This document shows positions 11,208-61,677 of a DNA stretch of 64,000 nucleotides, piece after piece; position 1 is the first letter of the stretch, and each line of letters starts with the position of its first letter. The DNA lies in NCBI RefSeq assembly GCF_006345805.1, contig NC_042999.1, positions 92,938,001 to 93,002,000 on the forward strand. Reading direction: 5' to 3'. The DNA comes from Octopus sinensis (lineage: Eukaryota). Made by a program: the position numbers and the translations under genes. The notes beneath the pieces were generated by a model that saw only the letters and a list, made by a program, of their open reading frames with translations, did not search any database and had not been told where the DNA came from.

Positions 11208-11853
11208 GGTGGACGCCTCTGAAAGGATTGGAGACAAACACTTTCCTCTCTGGTCAATCTCTCATCAACTTATTCAAGTACCACTTGAAAAGGAAAGTGA
11301 GAGTAGAGAGGCAAGTTTTGTCTAGCGAATGTTTTAAAAAAAGATGGGTGAATGTAGCAAGGATGGCACGTATGAATGACGAAGCCACCTTGAGCATAAT
11401 CCTATGAACCCAGAAATTGAAAACAGAGGGTTACCCACTTGCAAACAAATGTGGTAACATATAACAATATTGACCAAGGTTACCGTGGTCTTTTTCGTAG
11501 GCTTTTCTTCCCACAGATAAACCTTACTTGCTTTCCCCTTTACACCATATATAATAACACGATCTATTTTGATCGTTTTTTTTCCTCTTCCCTCTTTTTC
11601 CCCCTTTTTTCTTCTTTTTTCATTTCTCTTTCCTTTTGTTCCTTTTCCTTTTCTTTTTTTTCTTTTTATTCCTTTTATTTTATTCAAATTTTTTTTTGTT
11701 CTCTCCTTCCCTTTTACGATCCCTCTTGATCGAAAACCTACGCCACCCCCTTTTTTTTTCTTTTGTTTTTTGTTCTCTTCATCCCCCAAAAGAAAAGCTC
11801 TACCTTGTAACTTGTCCCATCTGTGTGCAGCCCTGTGTGGCCAATAAAGAAAC
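11203..11853 (+). mobile_element. Short 5'-truncated copy of the Tx1/L1-type LINE (ORF2 end + 3' UTR)
   Basis: 11203-11430 is highly similar to 14298-14525. Both copies end ...ctgtgtgcagccctgtgtggcYAATAAAgaaac followed by (TATC)n. Confidence 0.9.
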
Positions 11854-11917
<64 letters not shown>

Positions 11918-11945
11918 ATCTATCTATCTATCTATTTATCTATCT

Positions 11946-14502
11946 GTCTCAGCAAAGCACTAGCCATAGATAGAAATAGAGTAGAGGGTGAGCTAGTTAA
12001 GAAGCTAGAAGAGGCAATTAGACGCGGCATCGCATCCGACGTTTTGGCGGCGAGGTTGGCCCTCGACCAACACTTCAACGCCAAACACGAAGGATGTGCT
12101 GTCAGAGCTAGGATGCGTGCTCTAAGGAACGAGGGTGTTGGAGCCGCGAGAGAGGCCCGGGTGGCAGAGGCGCAACAGGACAACAAAGCCACCATTCGGT
12201 CCCTGGTAGATGAACAGGGGCGCGAATTGCTCGAGCCAAGTAAAATGTGTGAGGCCTTTCAGCAGCATTTTGCCCGACTGTTCGGAACGAGTGAAGGGCA
12301 AGAACGTAGGGTGGACTTCAGTGCCTACCTACATAGCCTACCACGACTCTCGACAAGAAAGGCAGGGTGCTGCGAAGGTGCCATCACGGCGGCGGAGGTG
12401 CAGGAAGCGATGGCAGAATGCTCGGGGGACAAATCACCGGGTTTGGATGGTCTACCCTACGAGCTTTACAATTGTATGCCAGACTTGTTTGGAGATCTCT
12501 TGGCGGCGGTGTACTGCAACTGGCAGCAAAACGGGAGCATTCCTGGTTTTGTGAGCCGAGGAGCCGTAACACTGCTGAAGAAAGATCTAAACAAGGGAAA
12601 TGTAATAGATAACTTAAGGCCCATCACTCTGCTTAATGCAGACTTGAAAATGTTGGCCAAGGTGCTAGCCAAGAGGTTGGCGCTTGTCATCGAGAAACTG
12701 GTCGACAGGGCGCAAACATGCGCCGTGCCAGACCGGACCATCCATGACAACCTCCACCTGATGCGCTACATCATAGACAGGGTAGTTAACGAACCTGGCA
12801 TGGGTGGGGCGCTGATCAATTTGGATCAATCAAAAGCTTTCGATAGGGTGGACCATCGATACTTGGAGGCGGTCCTCGGAGCGGCTGGCTTCGGTCCCGT
12901 CTTCCGCGGCTGGATAGCCGCTTTGTACAGAGGCATCCGTTCGGTAATTCGCGTGAATGGACATCTATCGAGACCCTTCGACATCGCACGTTCGGTCCGT
13001 CAGGGATGCCCCTTCTCGTCGCTTCTATACGTATTGACTCTCGAGCCATTATTGCGGAAGCTGGCAACCTTGAGAGCCATCCGCGAGAACTGGGATGCGG
13101 GACGAGCGTGTCTGCATACGCGGACGACGTCACCGTCATAGTGTCTAGCCACGAGCACATCGAGCAGGTCGGCGAGACACTGAAAAACTACGAAGCGGTG
13201 ACAGGAGCGAAAATCAACCGGGAAAAGTCAGTGGGCTTGCGACTAGGCACCTGGAGAAGCAAGCCCATGCCGTCCACCAGCGCCTCCGTCGTGGGACGCT
13301 GGACCGACGGCCCGGTTGAGTTGCTCGGGGTCTGGTTTGGTCCGGACCTCCAAGTGGAGAAGAACTGGAACGAGATAACGAGTAGGGTGGTCACTCTCGC
13401 CCGGCAATGGGCCGAGAGGAAACTGTCCCTAAAAGGTCGGGCGGAGGTGGCGAACACGTACATCGCGTCCGTCATCTACTACCGCCTGACCGTCGTACCT
13501 TGTCCCGACCCTACCATCACCAAACTACAACGCATTCTCTTTCGCTTCTTGTGGAAAGGATGCGTCCCGATGGTCAGGCGATCCATTTGCTGTCAACACC
13601 CGTTAAAAGGAGGGCTGGGCATGCCGTGGTTGATGATGCGCAGACACGCGCTGAGACTGCGACATCTCTGGCTCTATGTAGACGACGGTGAACAGGTGTG
13701 GTCGCCGTTTGTGAAGCACGCTTTCCCGCAGCTCGTCTCCATGACCGAACTGCAGTCGTGGATCAAAAAGAGGCCGAAGAAGGGCGAATGGCACCGCGAG
13801 TGTCGCGTTGCTCTCAAGCAACTCTGCCGTCCTGGGTCGACCTTAAGTGACTTCAACACAACCAAAGCATTCTATAGGGGTTTAGTGGAGGGGAGGTACG
13901 ACGACGAGCTCGGGGCGAACCTGGACGTCGACGAGGAGTACCTGACCCGCCTGTTCAGGACGACTTTCGGGCCAGGGCCCATCGACAACTTCCAGAGATC
14001 CCTGGCCTGGCAGTGCTACCGAGAAGCGCTACCCGTTCGGGATAAGCTCTACAGACACGGCTCGAGAAACACGGGGCCAACCTGCCCGAGATGCGGTCAG
14101 AGCGACGAAACCGTTCTGCACGCACTCGTTCAGTGTCCAACAATTTCCGACCTCTGAGCTTGTGTCGAACAACTGCTGTCACGTGTGGGACGAGTCGGTT
14201 TATCAGCTGAGTCTATCGTTAATATTGTCACGCCTCCCTCCTTCAAACGGGAAGGAAGAGCTATTTTCATCATCCTTGTGGCTATGGCGAAAGAATGTAT
14301 CTGGTGGACGCGTCTGAAAGGATTGGAGACAAACACTTTCCTCTCTGGTCAATCTCTCATCAACTTCTTCAAGTACCACTTGAAAAGGAAAGTGAGAGTA
14401 GAGAGGCAAGTTTTGTCTAGCGAATGTTTTAAAAAAAGATGGGTGAATGTAGCAAGAATGGCACGTATGAATGACGAAGTCACCTTGAGCATGATCCTAT
14501 GA
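11946..14502 (+). pseudogene. LINE ORF2 (RT + CCHC zinc finger), truncated before the RT (no APE domain), one frameshift (~13080) and one in-frame TGA (14155-14157)
   Basis: ORFs 11636-13141, 13006-14157 and 14185-14502 join into one Tx1-like ORF2. Confidence 0.88.
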
Positions 14503-22329: not shown

Positions 22330-25300
22330 TCACGAACAAACGCAAAAAAGAGCAAATTGGTCACTGAATTTAGAAAGTCACTGAACAGTTATGCCCGGAA
22401 ACATGTCTACCAAAAGAAATAGAGGCGAATTTCGATCTGTAAGTCTTATGCGAGTTCGATATGAACAATATATTAATTCGGAGAATTCAGAAGCGGTGTC
22501 TTGTCAAAAAATTGACCCTGTACAAACAGTCCCTTCTTCTAACGTCACTGTCACAGAAGTTGACTCTGAAAAAATGGACCCCTCTGATGTCGCCGTCAAT
22601 CATTTAATGAAAACAAGCCAAAAATCATGCCGGATCCGTCATCGCCCGGGACAACAAGGACCGTGTTACCCAGTAGGGAACCAGACTGGGGTCGAAAAGT
22701 TTGCTGCTGGAACAAACTCTCAAAAAGACGATCTACCAGGTGACCAGAACCAGAATACTTCTAACTCTGGACTTGTAGTGACACCACCAAAAACACCACC
22801 TAAAGCAAAACGTATAAAATGGATCAGAGATGACTATAGAGACGTGTTGAAAGCTTTTTATACAGCCCAACTAAACCCAAACAATAACCACAGTGTACAA
22901 ACATACATCTCATGGAGAAATTCAGTAGGCAATGACGTACGTAGATATATAGACGCAAATAAATTAAGTAATGTACGCAGAGATATAATTAAAAACAAAA
23001 AACTAACTGACGCTGAAATTGACAAAATTAGGACACTAATAGCTCATGGTAGACCAAAAGAAAACAGCAACAATGTAGACGAAATAGGTAACAGTAGCAT
23101 AGAAGCCAGTGTACAAGCGGAAAATCAACTTCCCAATGGGGAAGTTAAACAAAGAATAGCGAAGACGAGAGATTTGAAAAAAGAGGAGAACGTAGACCTT
23201 CCTCAAGAAAACCAAAATAGATATGACATAGACTTTGAGGTGAATAATTGAGAAAAGATTATGGAAGCAAAAGTGGACATTATGAGAGAACTCGGCAAGA
23301 TTGAGCTCACTGACATGGTTAATAGAGAACCGCTACCAAAGTTTTCAAATGGCACAAGAAATAGCAACACAATCATGACATATAACGTTGCCCTAGGACA
23401 GATCTTAAGAAATAAGGGGAATGATCTGACAACCTTAAATAATCTCATCTATTCCACTGCTAAAGTAGTAACTACCCAACTAGGTATTAAGATGACAAAG
23501 AAAAAGGCCAGGCATGTCAATGTACCTCCTAAGTGGAAAGTAGCGATACAAAAAGAGATTGAATCTCTGCGGGCGGATGTTTCAGTTCTCGATGAGCTTG
23601 CTCGTGGAGTGAATATTAAGTCGAGAAAAGCTAGAAAATCAAGCAAAAATATAAAATCAAAGATCTCATAAACCTCCCTGCAACTAAGGAACTGTTGAAA
23701 CAACGGATACAGTTGAAAGCCCAACGGCTTAGAAGGTATGACAAAAGAAACAAATTTTATCGACAAAATAAATTTTTTAAGATAGATGCAAAGAAATTTT
23801 ATAGGGAAATTGGCAAAAATAAAATACACATAGAAGATCCACCTAAGATTGAGGAAGTGGAGGAGTTCTGGAAGAAGGTATGGAGCAACGAAAAAGAGTT
23901 TAATGCTGAGGCTGACTGGATATAACGTGAGAAAGAGAGACTGGATGAACTTGAAGAACAGAAATGGGAAGCAATAGGAATAGAGGAGCTAAGGTGTGTC
24001 CTTAGGAAGGCTCATAAATGGAAAACCCCAGGACTGGATCGGATCCCTAACTTCTGGCTGAATTGTTTGACAGAGGTACACGAAAATCTCGCTGCATCTC
24101 TGTCTGATGTCATTCAGAACCCAGAGCAAATACCTGCTTGGCTGACTGAAGGAACCACCTACCTATTACCTAAAACCGAAGACACAAAAATCCCAAAAAA
24201 TTACCGGCCAATAACATGTCTCAACACCACCTACAAAATCATCACATCCATAATAACGGAGAGAATGTACGCTTTCCTTGAACAAAACTCTATCCTTCCA
24301 CAAGCTCAAAAAGGTTGTAAAAGAAACTCTAATGGGTGCAAAGACCAATTGCTCATAAACAGAATGATTGTAGAGAATTGCCGGAGCAAAAACAAAAACC
24401 TGAGTATGGCATGGATAGACTACAGGAAAGCGTATGACAGTGTCCCACATAAATGGATACTCAAGGCCCTTGAGATATACAAGATCTCTCCTGTCGTCTC
24501 AAAATTCTTAGAGAATAGCATGACCATGTGGAACACACGTCTCTTTCTAAGCCATAGTAATGGGATGAGCCAGTCCAACAGCATCGACATCAAAGGAGGC
24601 ATCTTTCAAGGTGACTCCCTCTCTCCATTACTTTTTTGCATGGCACTGATCCCACTCTCAAACGAATTGGATAGTACCAGATATGGGTACAAAGTTTTAG
24701 TAAGTTAATAAACCACCTTTTCTATATGGACGACCTAAAGCTGTTTGCCAGGAATGACCAAGAGCTAGAAGGGCTGTTAACAATGGATTTTGGCCTTGAT
24801 AAGTGTGCTAAAGCAACTTTTGTAAGAGGCAAGCTCAGGCAAACAGCTTCTGTTAAATTAGATATTGACACTACCCACAAGAAAGTTACAAATACCTAGG
24901 AATCAACGAAGGAGATGGTATACATCATGCTACTATGAAGGAAAAAATAAGAAAGGAATACTATAGGAGAATAAGGCTTGTACTGAAGACTGAACTCAAC
25001 TCCAAAAATTGCATTGAGGCCATTAGCACCCTGGCGCTTCCAGTAGTCCAGCACAGTTTTAACATCATTAACTGGAACCTTACGGAACTCTAACGCTTGG
25101 ACAGGAAGACTAGAAAATTACTGACATCCAAGAGCATGCACCACCCTAAGGCAGATGTAGACCGCCTGTACCTACCTAGAAGCAGTAGGGGGAGAGGAAT
25201 GATGCAATTAGAGCTGTGCTATATGACCTCTACTGTAGGAATGAACAGGTACCTATCTAGTACAAAGGACTGGATGCTGCGACTTGTGTGCGAACACGAA

Positions 25301-26390
25301 AGCAGCAAAAAGCTGCATTCTATTGACAAGGAAGCCTATAAGTTCGAAAGGGAACTAGACATTAACCTTGAACCAGATGAAGAGCCGGATACCACTGCTA
25401 CCAAGCAAGCAAAGCGAATCAAGCAGACTGCAAAAAAGAACGGGCAGAATCAAATTGAGGGGCGGTGGAGCCAGAAGCCCCTGCATGGACAATATACTCT
25501 CCGAAGCCAAAATGCTGATGTAGACCAAGCAACAACCCATCAGTGGCTGAAGAGTTCTGGATTGAAAGCAGAGACTGAAGGCTTCATAATGGCAGCACAA
25601 GATCAAAGCTTGTTTACTAGAAATTACCAGGCTAACGTTCTCCGAAACGGTACTGACCCTAAATGCAGATTCTGCGACACATTTGACGAAACGATAGACC
25701 ATCTCGTTTCGGGATGTCCTGTGCTGACACCAAACGAATACAAAAATCACCACGATAGGGTAGGACAGTATATACATTGGAAGATATGTAAATACTACAA
25801 ATTCGACACTCCTGCTAACTGGTATGAACACCATCCTCAGCCAGTTGTTGAAGGTAAGGATGTCACCACCCTCTGGGATTTTCCAGTCAACACTGACAGA
25901 ACGATCAAGGCTAATCGACCAGACATAATTGTTAAAGACAGGGAAGAAAATAGGGAAGACTAATAGAGGTAAGCGTCCCCACTGATAAAAATGTATCTGT
26001 AAAGGAATTTGACAAACTTAGTAAATATAATGACCTGGAAATCGAAATACAAAAGATGTGGAATCTTAAAACAAAAACTGTTCCTGTTATTGTAGGTGCC
26101 CTAGGTATGATAAAAAAGGGATGTCAGAAACACCTAGACAATATCCCTGGAGAACCATGTCTCAAGGAAATCCAAAAGATTGTGCTAACAAGTACTGCCC
26201 ACATCCTTAGAAAAACCCTATCAATGTAAATGTTTGTGTTTGTATTACATGGAGATATTTCTCTACTTCCCCTCCCCAAGCTTTCAGCTATATTTCAACA
26301 ACTCTTAACCTTCACTTGCCCTAGGGCGCGGGGTGTGCCCCGGCAAGTGATTGCATCAAACATGCAGATTAAAAGTAAATGACAATGATA

Positions 26391-26421: not shown

Positions 26422-26647
26422 ACGCTACTGGACCTGGAATTACCGCGGTTTATGGCTCCAGACTTGCCCTGCGGTGGATCCCCACTAACGGATTTGAAGT
26501 GTACTTATTCCGATTGTGGGGCCTCGACAGAGTCCCGCGTCGTTATTTTTCGTCATCCCCCCCCCCCACATGCCAGGAATGGGTAATTTGTGCGCCTGCT
26601 GCCTTCTTTGATTGAGGTAGCTGTTTCACATGCTCCCTCTCCGGCAT
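26414..26647 (-). pseudogene. 18S rRNA gene fragment (~230 nt, diverged)
   Basis: Plus strand reads tttaatatacgctaNtggaNctggaattaccgcgg...cagacttgccct...gttatttttcgtca...tgggtaatttgNgcgcctgctgcctt...ggtagcNgtttcNcaNgctccctctccgg. This is the reverse complement of the conserved eukaryotic SSU rRNA region around the 530 loop. Confidence 0.93.
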
Positions 26648-26654
26648 AATAATA

Positions 26655-27057
26655 TGTCCTCATGCAATACAAGGCTCATGACTTCTGATCTTAACTGAAT
26701 GAGACTGTTATCATGTATATTCTTTTGTCTTGGTATAAGAGAATGGGCTGAATTCTTTGGGGTTTGAATAATTAACCTCTGGAAACATGGGCCTTTCATT
26801 CATCACATTTAATCAACCCTTATACAGAGCTATTTTGAGCGGGATGTGCTACTCAACTTGAAGAAAATTCTAACTAGGACCCAACTGCAATTTCATGCGC
26901 TATTTATCTTGATATCAGATCACCATGCCGCGCATATCTGGTTGTGATGCATGTAGCTATTGTACCTTTATCAGACAAATAGTCATGATGGGTATACTGG
27001 GCTTCGTATATTTGTATCCCATTATCACTTTGATGGCATGCACTGCTCTCTCACTCA
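26655..27057 (+). repeat. Unclassified segment ending in a long (AAT)n array; possible retroelement 3' tail
   Basis: Sits between TAA remnants and runs directly into (AAT)n at 27058-27167. No protein motif was recognised. Confidence 0.3.
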
Positions 27058-29499: not shown

Positions 29500-29572
<73 letters not shown>

Positions 29573-29820
29573 ATATTTCGGAATGGTCATATTGCCAGTT
29601 TAGCCAACAAATATTTAAATATATATACATATATATATTACAAAATTAGAGAATGGAGAAACATACTTAAATCAATAAAACATCAACTATCAGATGATAC
29701 CCAATCAATACTTTAATACAGCATTACATATCAGTAAAGGCATTATACAAAATATACAGTAAGAGTAAATAGACAAAGAGATATAAGTATAAAATTTCCA
29801 ATATAATATGTAATTAAATC

Positions 29821-29936
29821 AAATCTGACAGCTGTTTCGGCAGTGAGGGCAGTCATACCTCATTTAACCTATAAGCCATAAAGGCAGGTATAAATGAGGC
29901 ATTAACAAGGATGCCCCACGGCCTCTTCAGAGAATT
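29821..29936 (-). ncRNA. Type I minimal hammerhead ribozyme with extended helix II
   Basis: AATTCT-CTGAAGA-[GGC...85-nt hairpin...GCC]-GAAA-C-AGCT-G-TC-AGATTT. The core is intact, the cleavage triplet is GUC, and helix III is palindromic (ACAGCTGT). Confidence 0.8.
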
Positions 29937-30272
29937 AAATTTGTTATAATTGTGAAAAAGATTATTTAACCATATACATATAAATATAAAAATATAAAAA
30001 TGTAAAATATAAAAACTTATACATAAACTTCATAATGCTACACTTATATAATATAATACTCATTGGTACAATAATGGAAGGTAAACAGAACAAAATAAAA
30101 CAAAATATATATCAGTGTATATATTAATATTAATAAGCACCGATATTATACATATTTGGCTAATAGTTTTTAAAAAAAAGTAACACATAGGGAGATGAAA
30201 AATAATAATTAAAACCATGGTTCAGTTCATAAAATTATAAAGCTATAAAAGTCAATAAAAATTACTATTAAT

Positions 30273-30309
<37 letters not shown>

Positions 30310-31954
30310 GATACAGTTATGTTTGCACCAAGTCCATCCTTTCAAGATCGAAATAACTATGAGTTTAGAAATACTGACCACTAGGTAATGATAATTTAGA
30401 TTAATTCGATTGGCTATTGGTTTGAAATTTAAATCACAAAAGAAATTATACGGTTGGTTAGTCAAGGAACGCCAATATTCATACGCGCATCTACAGATCA
30501 ATCGCACATACACACATAATTATATGTATACACATACACTTATACACATACATAACCACAAGCAACAACTAGCACATAGATAAACAAAAAGGGAAGCAAC
30601 TATGCTGCCATTTAGTCCTTCAAAATTATAACTATGCCTCAAATAACGAAAATGATCCACTCAAGCGTTTCATAAAATATTTAATTTAAAGATAGAAATA
30701 TATTTTTAAATATCAGTATGTTACGAAGTCAGATACTATTTCATTGGGTTACTTAAAATTTATAACACCGGTTTGTTGCATAGTAAACATACGGTTGTTA
30801 GATTTACCGTAAGTTTGTTATGATTCCAAGTACACTAAGTTATAAAATATAAAATATATATTAATTTATATATTATAAATATATCTCTTATTTACTTAAT
30901 AAATTTAATGCCATAATATACCAGTTTAGGCATTAAATAATATCAACAAGGGGAAGTACTAATGCAAACGCATATGAGAACATCCCAGAAATTAAAAAAA
31001 AATTTATATTATAAATACTTAAGATAAAATGTGATAAAATAAATAAGAAGGAATAAATACGGTTATACACATATTATAAGTACAAACCAGTATATATATA
31101 TTCATATATTATTAAAATAAAATAAAAATAAATGATAGATATGTATGTATAAAACTACACTTGTATAAGTAAATAAGTAAAAAATAAATAGATAACAAAT
31201 TAGATGACTTGATATGTATGTAAAAATCTACACTTAAATAAGCAAATAAATAAATAATTAGAAGACTAAATGCAGAGATTGATAACATTACAATAAAATA
31301 AATAAATAAATAAAGTGAATATATATGTTATATTGATGAAAGTAAATATGTATGGAAGGATAATTTAAAGTACAGATCCAGAGGACTATAGATATAAACT
31401 AAATATATAAGGCTGGTAATATTTATAAAGCCAAATGTATGCAAATTAAAAAAATGAAAAAGGTTTATTAGTAAATAGCATAAGATACAAATTAAGGTGA
31501 GTACAAAGAAAGACCAAATATACAATATAAACCTGCCAAATAAACACATACAAAAAACCTATATTCTCAACCTAAACAAACCAAACTCATTAAAGGCTCT
31601 CATATATTACATATTATACAATAGCATTACATTATCTAGAGCTAGGTATCTAACCAGGATATACATATATACTATGCAATATTAGAAAACTTCAAAAATC
31701 ACATATTACAAGGCAAATACCAAAATGAATATGTTATTTCATGTCATATTGCATTTCCCTTAAAAAACAAACAAAAACCCACATATAAAAAAACAAGAAA
31801 CAAATAATACTAGACACATCTATTATTATTATACAAATGTAGCTATAAAAATTATAAAATTATAAATTTATAAGTTGCATACTTTAGAATTATAGAAGAC
31901 CACTGGTATAGTTAGTTATAGAAGGGAGTTAAAAAATTATTAATAGTGGAAGTG

Positions 31955-34072
31955 CTAAGTTCTATTTGAATCTAGAAAAGGTGAACGGTAGCCTATGAAT
32001 GCAAAAGAAGTTTTTTTCATTATGTTGTTAATAATTTGCCGACCCGCTTTAATAATGAAAAAAATTTCATTAATACATAGAGAGCATTTTTTATTTTTTC
32101 CATTATACCCAGGTGCTGAAGTTAATATTTTCCAGTTTAATCTAAAATCTAAGTTCTTACTTTTAAGTTCCCAGATGTATGCACTTAGCCCTGTAGAGTA
32201 CATTCTATTTTTATTTCTAAAAGTATATCTGTGATAATTCAATCTTTGTTTTATGCTATTCATAGTTGCCCCGATGTACACCCTACTACTCAATTGTGTA
32301 TCTACAGTGCATTGGTAAACTACCTCCTTCCTGAGGCATTGATTACCAAACACACATTTATTTCTGTTTCTGAAATTACAAAGATTAACAGAATGAGGTA
32401 ATCTAAGATTGGTCCCCACCCCTATACTACCATTCACATTATAAGTGTTACAATTGTTATCATCATCCAAACCCAAAATCAACGAATGAGTTAATTTCAC
32501 ATTATTGGCTATATTCCTATCACTAGTACTAGTATTGGTAGTAGCAGTATGATCTATTACATTTATATTATCTCTAACAGGTACGGTGCACTCATTATTA
32601 GTAAGGGGGTTGTTCACATTCGTTCCAAGAAAGTTTCTGTTCCTATTATTATTAAAGAGGGGCAGATTTCCATTGTCTAAATTCAATTTTCTATCCTTAT
32701 AGAAGTGATCCAGTTTCCTGTTATTAAAAGAAGAGATAATGGTGGCTAGATTATGAGTAATGCTATATCCCACTCTAACAGTACCGTTGTTAATTAAAGG
32801 ACTAAATTTATTCTTATCCTTACCAAAATGCCTAAATATAACATTATGCAAAGCTCTCACTATGTTTGTTTTAATCTGCATTGCATATAGGATAATCAAC
32901 CAGAGTGTATCCTTATCAGAATTAGGATTGCCTATAGAATTATTGTTATTTGTAAAAATCCTATTCCTAGACCAACCCATAGGATTACTATTCTTACCAC
33001 TGTCATTGTTATATCTATCTATATCAATATTCCCATGATTATTGCACAAGTAAACTTTACCATTATCATGTCTACCATAAGTTTTAATATGTATATTATT
33101 ATTAATATTACTACTATTACCCGTATGCTCAGATCTATTTGAGCTACCGTTCACCTTTCCGAGGTTAACATCACTTCTACATTTATTATAGGTGTTATCA
33201 TATATTCTATTTTTACTATTCTTATGTTTATTGTTGTTTATCCTAAATCTATTGGTGTTGTTCCTGATAGTTCTACCTCCTTAGGTATAAACCATATCTT
33301 ACTTTTGTATCCTGCCTTAAGCAATGCTGCATTGTATCTATCACAATGCTTGTTAAAAATTTCCTCGTTAGAGGATAAACTAGAAATTCTCTGACTAATG
33401 CTACGCACTAGTGCATTTTTAATTTGAGGGGGGTGATTACTTGAACGGTTAATATATATTAGGTTAGAATTAGGTTTAATATAGGGTTCATGTAAACCAT
33501 TAGTAATGTTACAATTAACATCTAAATAATTAGCAGAATAATTTTCACTTTCAATGATAATGGATAGGCCGAAACTTTTAAAAAAATTATTTATTCTTTT
33601 TTTCAGAAGATCTAATCTCCTATTAGAACACAAAATAAGGCGTCATCCCTGTATAATCCACCTTTTAATTCAGGGAATTCCCTACTAAAGTTATCTAATA
33701 GATACATCCCAACTAGATCAGTCACCTCCGCCGAGTCCGGCGATCCCATTGTGATATCGAACAAGTTGGGTGTGTCCTTTCTAGCCCAAAGTTTATTATC
33801 AAACTCTATTAAAGTTTTCTTGGCTGTTAATATAACGTTAATCTCCCCCCATACTTAATTTAGTGTGTTTTCTAGCAAAAATTAAGGACTTATTTAATAT
33901 AATAGGGTTAATGGAAGTGTAATAATTCTGTATATCAAATTGGATGAATTTATTTCTATTATAGCTAAAGTTGTTATTGTCACAGACCTTAATGGCAGAA
34001 AACCAATCCAAAGCACCCTGAGTATTCTTCCAAAGGTTTAGTTTGATTTTACTGCGGATGGTGGGTAGATAT
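31955..34072 (-). pseudogene. PLE RT-GIY-YIG polyprotein, frameshifted, with Asn-rich insertions
   Basis: ORFs 33238-33633 and 31955-33154 plus the RT core at 33640-34070. Confidence 0.85.
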
Positions 34073-34101
34073 TTATATACATATATATATATATATATAT
34101 A

Positions 34102-34299
34102 TTACGGAGATGTACTCGCATAGCAAGTAATTTGATCTGAGATCGTGTGCTGAAACGAAAACAATTGCAGCGTGGAAGGTGTTTATAAGCCATTTAAGAA
34201 ATACACAAAAGCCGTTCGATTCACTTCAACATTTAAGTTTAATTCGTCAAAATATTTTCGTCGCTAAAATCCGCGACCTGTTCACTGACAAAGTCCGTG

Positions 34300-34300
<1 letters not shown>
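34102..34300 (-). mobile_element. 199-bp non-coding unit between (TA)n tracts carrying a variant HHR; probable PLE pLTR-derived element
   Basis: Sharp boundaries against (TA)n on both sides, with an HHR fold at 34243-34292. Confidence 0.65.
34243..34292 (-). ncRNA. Minimal hammerhead-like motif with G3-C8 swapped core
   Basis: TTTGTCA-GTGAACA-G-GTCGC(ggatttta)GCGAC-GAAA-ATAT-TT-TGACGAA: 7-bp helix I, 5-bp helix II and palindromic AAATATTT in place of helix III. Confidence 0.65.
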
Positions 34301-34337
<37 letters not shown>

Positions 34338-34426
34338 TATATATATACATACATACATACATACATAATATATATATATATACATATATATATACATATA
34401 TATATATATACATATATATATAATAT

Positions 34427-34457
<31 letters not shown>

Positions 34458-56781: not shown

Positions 56782-57918
56782 GAGCTTTGGGAGAGGGCTC
56801 CAATATTGGTGTCTCTGGAAAGTTACTACAATGGATCAAGTGTTTCCTGACAGGCAGAATCAAACATTTTGTAGTCGAAGGAGTAAAATCAAGACCAGCC
56901 AAATACAGTAGTGGTGTCCCACAAGGCACTGTGTTGGGCCCATTTATTTTCATCATCTACATCTCTGACATTACTGACATCATCAAGCACAGTAGCATAA
57001 GAATCTTTGCAGATGATTCTAAGATCCAGATGTCTATCAATTAATGGGTGGCCGGGCATGCGTTCAGTCAGATCTGCAGGCTGGCATCTAATGGGTGGAA
57101 AAGAATAGCATGTTGCTGAATTAGGACAAATTTGAGTTGATCCACTTCGGAAAAGAGGATACCCAGAAACTCCGATACTCCCTTCCTTCAGGTGAAATCT
57201 TCATGGTATCCAACAACATCAGAGACTTGGAAGTAATTGAGGACAACATAAGCTGGACCGCTCATATAAACAAGAAAGTTGACATGGCGCGCCGAATGTG
57301 TTCCTGGATTCTCAGAACTTTCCAGTCGAGAGATATCTACAGTATTATCTTTCTCTTCTGTACTGTTGCCCGACCCCACCTTGAATACTATTGTTCACTG
57401 TGGTCTCCCCACACGAAACAAAGTATCATTGAAGCACTTCAAATGTCAATCATAAAACAGACCGATAGCATGAAAGGCCTTGTCTACTGGTGTCGACTAG
57501 AAAAGCCAAAGCTTTATTCTCTCCAACGCCACCATAAGCGCTGCATCTGCTGCATGGTGTGGAAAGTATTCCATCGGCATTGCCGAAATGATATTGGCAT
57601 CGCCTTTAAGACACATCCAAGATTTGCACTCCGTGCTGTCCGCCCATAATATAGATCATACTCGCATCACATATACGGCACAAATATTTCACCTCATTTA
57701 GCCCCGCTCTCTTTAACATTACACTAAAACAAATTAAGGCAGAAACAGACCCCATAAAGTGCAAGAGGTTTTTGGACAAATGCCTTCAAACTATCTAGGA
57801 TAAACCGCCTACACCATGTTATGTCTCCATAAACAATAGCTCTCTCCGCGAGTGAGCCATGTTGTCAGATCCCTGATTTGAATGGCTTCGCCAGGTCTGC
57901 TATCAAAATTTCAAGGTA
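56782..57918 (+). mobile_element. 5'-truncated decayed CR1/L2-group LINE (RT 3' half)
   Basis: GVSGKLLQWIKCFLTGR...SGVPQGTVLGPFIFIIYISD...IFADDSKI, then IRDL, W..HI, VARPHLEY..LWSP, L..L.SLQR. Confidence 0.88.
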
Positions 57919-59193: not shown

Positions 59194-61677
59194 CCAAATA
59201 AACACTCACAGTATATATTCTTTCTTCACTCGTTTATTATTATTATTATTATTTTATCTTATTGCTATTGTCTGGAAATCTTTCGTTACACAACAGTGAT
59301 CTCTTCAGTGACTCTTCCATCCCACGTTTCCCACCTTACTGTGTTTAGCCCAACCAAAATATACTAGAGATTCATGTTCGTGGATGATACCCATGGCTAC
59401 GATCAGCATGTCTTTTTCGGAAACCTTTAGATAAGGTAAATCTATTAATTAATGTAGTAGAAAGGCTAGGAACTCCCAATAAAATCTCTGATCTGTAGAA
59501 CATATCTATTTGATAGATACGGTGAACTACTGTATAGTATATAAAGTGACCCAACAGGTTAACTGTAAGATTAGGAATGTAGTCTATAGCTTACTACGGT
59601 GCAGAAACAAGACAACTTATCTTGGGAAGCCGGCATGTAGCATAGAGGAGCGGATAAGCGTACACTGGTAGGAGCTCAAAAAGGAGACAATCTCGTCCGT
59701 ACTATCCCAACATGATCAATTTGTACACAGGTTAAGGCATTATCTACGCATAGAACAGACACAACACTTAGACCACGGAGGCAACACACATAATAATAGA
59801 CAAACCGAACCTCAAAAGAAAACACGAATGAAACAATAATACCCACCACCACCACCACCACCACCACCACACTACGTGACACGAGGACTAAAGACAGAAG
59901 CGGCGAAAGAGACAAATACGAACAGTATAATAATTTGTATTGTGAATTTCCTCACTAGAACCGAATGTTCCACATAATAACATAATACAGTTATATCCCC
60001 AGATAATTATTTGGTGTGCAGCAAAAAGCAGTTAAATGGCATCTTCTCAGATGCTTCTTTATTTTGAAAAACGAAAACCAAACTCTTATTGGAAAATCTA
60101 TATAAACCTATATACAAACACATACAAGAAACACATACACAATCTAAGAAAATAGAAAAAGAGATAAATAAATAAATGAAAGGAAAACTATATAAAGGGC
60201 ACGGAATATAAAGAATATAGTGAGCGAACTCATACACACACACCAAAACACATAGAAAACACATAGACACGCGTACACACATGCACGCACACAAGCACCC
60301 CCCACACATACACATATGTATACACGTACTCACACCTCTTGTCTATTCATGTCAATTCCAGTGCTAGATTATCCAATGAGAATTTGGTTTCCTTTATTTA
60401 AAGAAAAACCAAATTTTCTTTAAATAAGAAAATTTATTTAAAGAAAGCGTCTGAGAGGACGTGTCATTTAATTGTTTTTTGATGCACAACAAATTATTAT
60501 TGGTTCTTGTGAGGAAATTCACAACACAAAGTGAATTTCTTGGACCTGGAATTAAAATCAGATCGGTTAACTAACTTACTAGACATGCTGTGAATCCGTC
60601 TACCTTCTGACATTAAATATATCACTAAAAGAGTCGAGTGACGATGAAAGATCCCCAAAGTCGATTCTTTGGAATCATAGCCAAATTCTCTTTAAATCAA
60701 AGTCTGCAATATTTAGAAACGCAAGGGCACATTAGATAATGTATGGAAGTAAAATGATTGAAAAACATATGTAAATGTGACACATATATAAATGTCTATG
60801 ATAATATATCTGTTCCATGAAGTAATGCAAAGACCCACAAAGACCAACATCAACAAGAAGATTTATTACCAAAGGTATCTCTAATTCGGTATATCTGAAA
60901 ACATCTGCCAAATTAATGAAACTGTTGCGTTTGATTTGAGGTAGATTTGGCTCCTATTTTTAAAGGATCGAGCGACCGTGTATTGGCTTGCACGTTCGCT
61001 CGTCAGAATTCTTTTACACTGTGACAGACATGTACATTTAAAATTAGAAAGTCAGTTATATCCGTCAGAGATTGATACCCATGCATACTGTTATAAAAAA
61101 AAGAACCATCCAGTAATCCCTGTCAGTTATTCAGTTGAAATGCTTCAAATATGTCACACTAAGTCATGGTTTATGTAACATGGATACTTTTACGAGTACG
61201 ATTCGCATAAAAGCTATCAAAATATCTAAAGTAGATTTCACAAAGTACTGATGTACTGCTGTAAACTATATCAAATATTTACTATAAGACGTATAAAACA
61301 TACACACAAACAAAACCGCATGCGTTTACGAAGATTTTCTCTCTTTCTCTTTCACACGCATATGCATACAATCACACAGCTATAGGCGCACATTAAAATA
61401 TAAGTATAAAACACACAAACACACACAAACACACGCACAGTCATGTTAGTTGCAGTCGGCTGTAACATACACAGAGATTCGAGGGAGCATAGACTTACCT
61501 ACAAGTTATACGTACAACCATATGCCTGTACTAAATACATGCATTTAGCACAAGCATACTCACGTACACACATACACGATCGCACGCGCGCACACAGTCA
61601 CTCAAATACACACACACATACACACACACACATATATATATATATATACATACATATACATTTGATGTATATGTATA

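Follow-up and report, generated by a model that had tools for sequence, protein, structure and literature searches.

The hammerhead ribozyme is regarded as having an almost invariant core, for which genome surveys search with the string CUGANGA (plus UUGANAA). A locus of Octopus sinensis, within a stretch of 64,000 nucleotides (contig NC_042999.1, 92,938,001 to 93,002,000; hereafter the window), raises the question of whether a natural hammerhead can carry this core with the tertiary pair between positions 3 and 8 turned around, as G3-C8 in place of C3-G8. Read on the minus strand from 34292 to 34243, the motif consists in order of the 5’ strand of helix I, GUGAACA, an extra G, helix II, GAAA, AUAU, UU and the 3’ strand of helix I. 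Its parts, all on the minus strand, are as follows, with the evidence in brackets.

34286..34292, minus: helix I, 5’ strand (sequence and fold)
34279..34285, minus: core strand G3-U4-G5-A6-A7-C8-A9 (sequence, family tally, covariation), in which G3 is 34285 and C8 is 34280 (sequence)
34278, minus: extra nucleotide, a G, between A9 and G10.1 (sequence; accessible part of PMC4209133)
34260..34277, minus: helix II of 5 bp, first pair G10.1-C11.1, with the 8-nt loop II (fold, covariation)
34256..34259, minus: G12-A13-A14-A15.1 (sequence)
34250..34256, minus: 6-nt A/U palindrome from A15.1 to U16.1 in place of helix III, followed by U17 (sequence, duplex energy)
34250 and 34249, minus: U17 and U1.1, with the predicted cut between both
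34243..34249, minus: helix I, 3’ strand (fold, locus comparison)

The predicted cut at 34250/34249 presumes the established hammerhead numbering. The 50-nt piece folds into exactly helices I and II (MFE -14.4 kcal/mol, z -3.0, with 1 of 200 shuffles equally stable), the same helices as in the original prediction of a G3-C8 hammerhead on this strand, and the layout pattern had no match in 100 shuffles of the window. When 3.84 Mb of shuffled window sequence was searched with a G3-C8 descriptor, there were 0 hits. Helices, core and palindrome of the predicted layout stand, whereas the extra G at 34278 was missing from it and the G at 34245, which gives helix I a G.U pair, proved to be a variant of the window copy: a Watson-Crick A occupies this position in 28 of the 30 best-matching loci (70 bases compared), with G in the window copy and L002. 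The CUGANGA core with C3-G8 is replaced by G3-C8 both in the window and family-wide, so that positions 3 and 8 form their Watson-Crick pair as G-C; U4, G5, A6, A9, G12, A13, A14, A15.1-U16.1 and H17 are all present, as are helices I and II with covariation. An intramolecular helix III is absent, a palindrome being found there instead, as in the minimal hammerheads of Penelope-like elements (PLEs), whose extra nucleotide between 9 and 10.1, palindromic 15.2-16.2 and location in a pseudo-LTR (pLTR) are likewise found here. According to the accessible part of PMC4209133, the extra nucleotide is a known trait of PLE hammerheads and a loop I-loop II contact is unrecognisable in many PLE motifs. That CUGANGA pattern searches would miss the motif was correctly foreseen; an Rfam scan of the window also returned no hammerhead match for it at gathering score or at E<=10, just microsatellite artefacts, and a canonical-core motif at 29930, belonging to a neighbouring Hydra-type element, was likewise missed at gathering score.

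The G3-C8 core is the state of a family and no private mutation of the window copy. Within the octopus’s own genome (2.7 Gb), the 198-bp unit carrying the motif has at least 998 candidates, the best 40 of them at 99-100%. A looser pattern with the G3-C8 core matched 6,907 genomic sites against 2 in the reversed control, and the same pattern with C3-G8 instead matched 5. One of those five, L094:5049 (plus strand), is a decayed family member in which C3-G8 is either a chance double change or an ancestral relic. When positions 3 and 8 were left free, the exact core and helix II gave 1,412 matches in the genome; among the 100 matches listed, 97 were G3-C8, 1 was G3-G8, 2 were G3-A8 and none had C3. 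As a guard against circularity, copies were also chosen by a 3’ flank word alone (7,127 sites, the first 100 of those listed yielding 95 distinct copies). Of the copies covering the respective position, 72 of 74 had G3 and 73 of 79 had C8, in agreement with the claim that both partners had changed jointly. Contigs of four sequencing runs covering the motif contained, among the matches listed, no variant of position 3 or 8 at 3% or above. The family consensus, which the genome search with the 34102-34300 unit had been proposed to check, is thus G3-C8 and not canonical CUGANGA. A search for G3-C8 families with G/C palindromes showed no enrichment (58 sites against 89 in the control) and led to the older subfamily described below.

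The element to which the motif belongs was determined from the arrangement of the unit and its neighbours.

34301..34457, no strand: (TA)n target microsatellite, 5’ side (sequence)
34101..34300, minus: solo pLTR of a Neptune-like PLE, ending at the family’s distal 3’ end
34101..34193, minus: first 31 codons of the Neptune-like ORF (the frame continues into the element’s ORF in L335)
34101..34162, minus: optional ‘tail’, lying from one common 3’ end (34163) to the other (34101) (copy comparison; tail concept of PLEs from the accessible part of PMC11167929)
34069..34102, no strand: (TA)n target microsatellite, 3’ side (sequence)
29501..34076, minus: unrelated Hydra-type PLE, 5’-truncated and frameshifted, not part of the pLTR unit
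29822..29934, minus: the Hydra-type element’s own canonical C3-G8 minimal hammerhead, C3 = 29930 (sequence)

The window sequence agrees with the predicted (TA)n-bounded unit of about 199 bp. The unit and the adjacent PLE (34076-29501) lie on the same strand with just ~30 bp of (TA)n between them, from which the unit had been taken as the upstream repeat of that PLE. The adjacency is real, but the membership is not: the unit is absent from 35 of 35 other loci of the Hydra-type family, which has a different pLTR and a C3-G8 hammerhead at both ends of its intact copies, while the unit itself both follows and precedes a different, Neptune-like ORF. The upstream-repeat reading is scarcely credible. 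Both families target (TA)n, and the Neptune-like unit and the Hydra-type PLE share such a target by coincidence. Intact 960-codon copies of the Hydra-type element were found at L066 and L067, and the L066 frame contains an RWK-like motif, DKT, a CxCX5C linker, and CxxC and CxH near the C-terminus, motifs of the Hydra clade as given in the accessible part of PMC8557442. Helix II of the Hydra-type hammerhead (29822-29934, minus) is unusually long, at ~85 nt. Elsewhere in the window are a degenerate 18S rRNA fragment (26426-26787, minus) and broken non-LTR retrotransposon ORFs at 11573-14157, 22385-25963 and 57125-57649, all on the plus strand.

In long copies the unit is continued upstream by a 3’ UTR and by an ORF that encodes RT, a CX3CxxC linker and an endonuclease at its C-terminus. 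The copy at L073 has an intact 1042-codon frame with RT, a CX2-5CxxC-type linker and, at the C-terminus, a GIY-YIG endonuclease (by eye against the accessible part of PMC8557442). In eight loci G3 lies 919-1109 nt behind the Neptune-like stop codon, and in L335 the unit stands directly before the ORF, its 3’ end passing in frame into it. Because the unit is found both behind the stop and in frame before the ORF, it is the pLTR, within which lie the hammerhead and, as the beginning of the ORF, 31 codons; the start of the ORF is 56 nt from the predicted cut on its 3’ side, and the window pLTR is ~7 nt short of the commonest 5’ start. Family copies show two 3’ ends ~60 nt apart and inverted partial copies, matching the tail and inverted arrangements of PLEs (PMC11167929 and PMC8557442, in the parts available). 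The best named homologue of the Neptune-like protein is from Octopus vulgaris, and Pfam gave no significant family for the Neptune-like or the Hydra-type protein. The host element appears Neptune-like by its motifs, with Nematis as a possible alternative. A suspected tandem full-length array on C1 turned out to be a segmental duplication of a solo pLTR. Sequencing run X4 on L061:755-1000 contained low-level T>C at 17 places and A>G at 7, and run X17 at 3 and 4; the X4 differences resemble those expected if hairpins of inverted pLTRs underwent A-to-I editing, the type of run being a guess.

The older G3-C8 subfamily has its 3’ flank in common with the young one and was found at 108 sites against 1 in the control. 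Older copies found by the flank alone (29 loci after removal of the query) have a majority of G3 (17 of 27) and C8 (19 of 28), truncated rows included. The flanks of older and young copies agree in 111 of 137 columns (81%) and differ in 26, while 14 of 14 core positions are identical. What has changed within the motif is N7, loop II, loop III and, with compensation, the distal pair of helix I, U-A in the young and G-C in the older subfamily, whose palindrome is just 4 nt. The claim of selection on function is supported by this constancy of the core beside a varying N7, loop II and loop III, and since the motif was kept while neighbouring positions changed, it probably represents a natural self-cutting RNA that works in this variant form. 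An ORF was not found upstream of the older subfamily’s pLTRs in the loci examined, and the subfamily is for this reason absent from the tree below.

Related families were retrieved by a pattern of the same architecture that had another palindrome and left positions 3 and 8 unspecified; it matched 2,377 sites against 15 in the control. The first 30 of these loci comprised 20 with C-G at 3-8, 2 with G-C, 1 with U-A, 1 with U.G and 6 unpaired, and 20 further loci chosen for unusual cores yielded U3-A8 and U3.G8 families and the older G3-C8 subfamily. Across 25 hand-picked representatives, a set biased by choice and relatedness, positions 3 and 8 were always paired (10 GC, 9 CG, 3 UA, 3 UG) and 4 of the 5 helix II pairs had changed on both sides, slid controls being far lower. 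The proposed check on helix covariation thus came out in its favour, as helices I and II and the 3-8 pair covary across related families. U3-A8 and U3.G8 cores are carried by C1 families (L143-L146, L150, L156, L159-L162), whose ORFs were not found and whose U.G wobble is a plausible natural intermediate.

A tree was built from the C-terminal RT/endonuclease region (15 rows, midpoint root), leaving out L077, of which just a 15-residue piece was retained. The four G3-C8 copies form a clade (100/99) that is sister to the C3 families of the same genome (98/99) and nested among metagenome relatives. Sixteen such relatives of the element were found: the four with enough flank (L165, L170, L173 and L177) have canonical C3-G8, L168 is degenerate, and the remaining ones had no motif. 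Since the G3-C8 clade is nested among C3-G8 relatives, the swap is derived and arose once, in the Neptune-like lineage, and with this single origin the covariation rests on few independent events. Such an origin, and the position of the motif just 3’ of the putative transcription start, would suit a neutral double substitution hitch-hiking in one master lineage, with conservation stemming from DNA-level promoter elements or recent common descent and not from RNA structure. This explanation is improbable, however, as no related family examined has mostly unpaired 3-8, changes in helices I and II are compensated, and the loops vary whereas paired and core positions are constant. Judged by these comparisons of sequence, the motif is a real variant of the PLE minimal hammerhead, with a core that is derived and under selection.

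Other hammerheads were seen in passing. A covariance model located a decayed C3-G8 hammerhead of a related family in the window at 59266-59316 (minus), followed by (TA)n. In L095 a unit of ~1 kb is repeated in tandem in a retrozyme-like manner, with C3-G8 minimal hammerheads at two sites ~1 kb apart. The motif at L108:2162 (minus), which has no relation to the family, is canonical and type I-like, and its 6-nt palindrome contains G/C. In viral contigs a complete type I fold was present at 1 of 22 G3-C8 sites and at 0 of 41 G3-G8 and 0 of 64 C3-C8 control sites. The one fold, in the phage contig L373, indicates that the G3-C8 swap is not unique to the octopus genome; what is distinctive there is its fixation in a family that counts thousands of copies and whose origin can be traced.

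Whether the motif cuts was approached through the 5’ ends of genomic copies. For short copies that abut (TA)n without intervening sequence, at a joint no more than 30 nt upstream of the flank word, the starts were read by eye in the first 100 of 216 rows, with duplicates, one internal deletion and indirect joints excluded. Among the matches listed, 7 of 29 have their start at the predicted cut or 1 nt from it, an excess over a uniform null with p = 0.022, or 0.055 without the single inverted joint L344. In the 20 (TA)n-joined loci examined, copies starting at the cut had no same-strand ribozyme piece upstream. By alignment, 3 of the 95 flank-anchored copies start at the cut, all of them inverted joints, which is attributable to the 7-bp helix I complementarity; a fourth, L287, was recognized by eye. 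Truncation in this set is non-uniform, with other 5’ hot spots at -43 (10 copies) and -33 (5 copies).

Most flank-anchored copies retain the 5’ part of the pLTR, and most short copies start near -58 to -55. The commonest start is directly preceded by a G in 23 of 32 short copies, compared with 0 of 19 among the long ones (Fisher p 2e-7, the copies being partly non-independent). This extra G is read as a copied cap, as in LINE-1, and hence as a sign of uncut templates. At L061:960-990 and in other long copies, a branch-point-like word, a pyrimidine run and an AG stand directly before the commonest solo-pLTR start, a stretch that is possibly a 3’ splice site or a core promoter. An origin of the common 5’ start by splicing is disfavoured, the sequence upstream of the extra G not being shared among copies.

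The dimer helix of the palindrome is predicted at -0.2 kcal/mol and a competing 10-bp register that ties up A13/A14 at -3.8 kcal/mol; the monomer MFE lengthens helix I by a G3.U17 pair. The G3 families have U and not C at N17 and thereby avoid a G3-C17 pair, for which an inhibitory effect is suggested in the accessible part of PMC3884650; as U17 is also found in the U3 families, it represents no specific co-adaptation to G3. A very weak dimer helix with competing pairings, together with the origin of most copies from uncut RNA, would suit a hammerhead fold, including the 3-8 pair, kept as a structural RNA handle for protein binding or 5’ UTR translation control and practically non-cleaving in vivo. 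The available part of PMC11167929 points the same way for Anolis, where in vitro insertion was unaffected by hammerhead mutations and none of the reads had its end at the cut, and rescue by G3-C8 is just partial there and in PMC8495972 as far as available. A handle of this kind is nevertheless unlikely, given that G12 (the general base), A13, A14, A15.1-U16.1 and the 3-8 pairing are kept across subfamilies and that copies starting at the predicted cut are in excess.

The reading that is preferred, with a probability of roughly 0.7, is that the motif is the minimal type I hammerhead of a Neptune-like pLTR with lineage-wide G3-C8, likely a slow, conditional, dimer-dependent and probably protein-helped self-cleaver. 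Self-cleavage activity of the G3-C8 motif is likely, and a slow, conditional, protein-assisted ribozyme would fit the evidence both for and against cleavage. The accessible part of PMC11167929 describes cleavage by a PLE hammerhead as dependent on the element’s protein. Transcription would begin inside the pLTR, ~58 nt upstream of the cut site, and a pLTR-ORF-pLTR transcript would contain two motifs able to build a dimer helix III. The cut after U17 (34250) would occur just when two copies pair via the palindrome, probably with assistance from the element’s protein. Most RNAs would be reverse-transcribed uncut, giving rise to solo pLTRs such as the window copy, and a minority would be cut. As a solo insertion, the window copy would have no partner in cis. 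The stronger proposal, of a catalytically active, polarity-flipped hammerhead that is fixed in an expanding lineage and cuts in vivo, with fossils that start at the scissile bond, is held tentatively, at slightly worse than even odds.

A lineage of ~7,000 G3-C8 copies shows that evolution can cross a mismatched intermediate and that current descriptors overlook whole families, and it would be a confirmation from nature of the tertiary 3-8 pair in both polarities. If true, four natural 3-8 states (C-G, U-A, U.G and G-C) coexist in one genome, and these sister motifs form a ready series for studying the role of PLE hammerheads, for which genomic 5’ ends could serve as a read-out in vivo. Thousands of ribozymes would then be invisible to CUGANGA surveys, possibly also in PLE clades reported to be hammerhead-free; according to the accessible part of PMC8557442, the ‘no hammerhead’ result for Naiad/Chlamys relied on the cuganga core string.

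Within the partly available literature, a natural G3-C8 hammerhead was not found, although Lünse 2017 or variants appearing only in figures could already show one; none was present in the accessible text of PMC6765202, PMC6155905, PMC2920678, PMC10085705, PMC13282606 or bioRxiv 10.64898/2026.07.22.740005. In the same partial sense, natural U3-A8 is reported in PMC3088659 (Perreault 2011) and PMC4209133, and G3-C8 is published as an engineered mutant in PMC11167929, PMC8495972 and PMC3884650.

Four known systems offer a comparison, drawn from those parts of the cited papers that were available. The host element resembles the Neptune clade (PMC8557442) in its RT followed by a C-terminal GIY-YIG-type region, its CX3CxxC linker, which fits CX2-5CxxC, its DKG-like DKSG, its (TA)n targets, its pLTR with a tail, and its tandem and inverted copies. 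The motif shares with the minimal type I hammerheads of metazoan PLEs (Cervera & de la Pena 2014, PMC4209133) the pLTR location, the palindrome for helix III, the extra nucleotide between 9 and 10.1, G10.1-C11.1, and a predominance of solo truncated copies with inverted partial copies. Their published consensus is CUGANGA with U3-A8 as the sole 3-8 variant, and the octopus motif differs in G3-C8, a 7-bp helix I, an A/U-only palindrome and U17. The U3-A8 variant (PMC3088659; Cercyon PLEs of Schistosoma, PMC4209133) is similarly a compensated change of the tertiary 3-8 pair, and U3-A8 and U3.G8 families are present in the octopus genome too. That variant retains pyrimidine-3 and purine-8 and is reachable by transitions via a U.G wobble, whereas in G3-C8 the polarity is flipped and transversions through a mismatched state are needed. 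The identical core change has been engineered as the C3G/G8C double mutant of the PLE hammerhead of Anolis Poseidon (PMC11167929; reviewed in PMC8495972), in which cleavage was partly restored. The mutant is a laboratory construct, whereas the octopus G3-C8 is natural and fixed in an expanding family of thousands.
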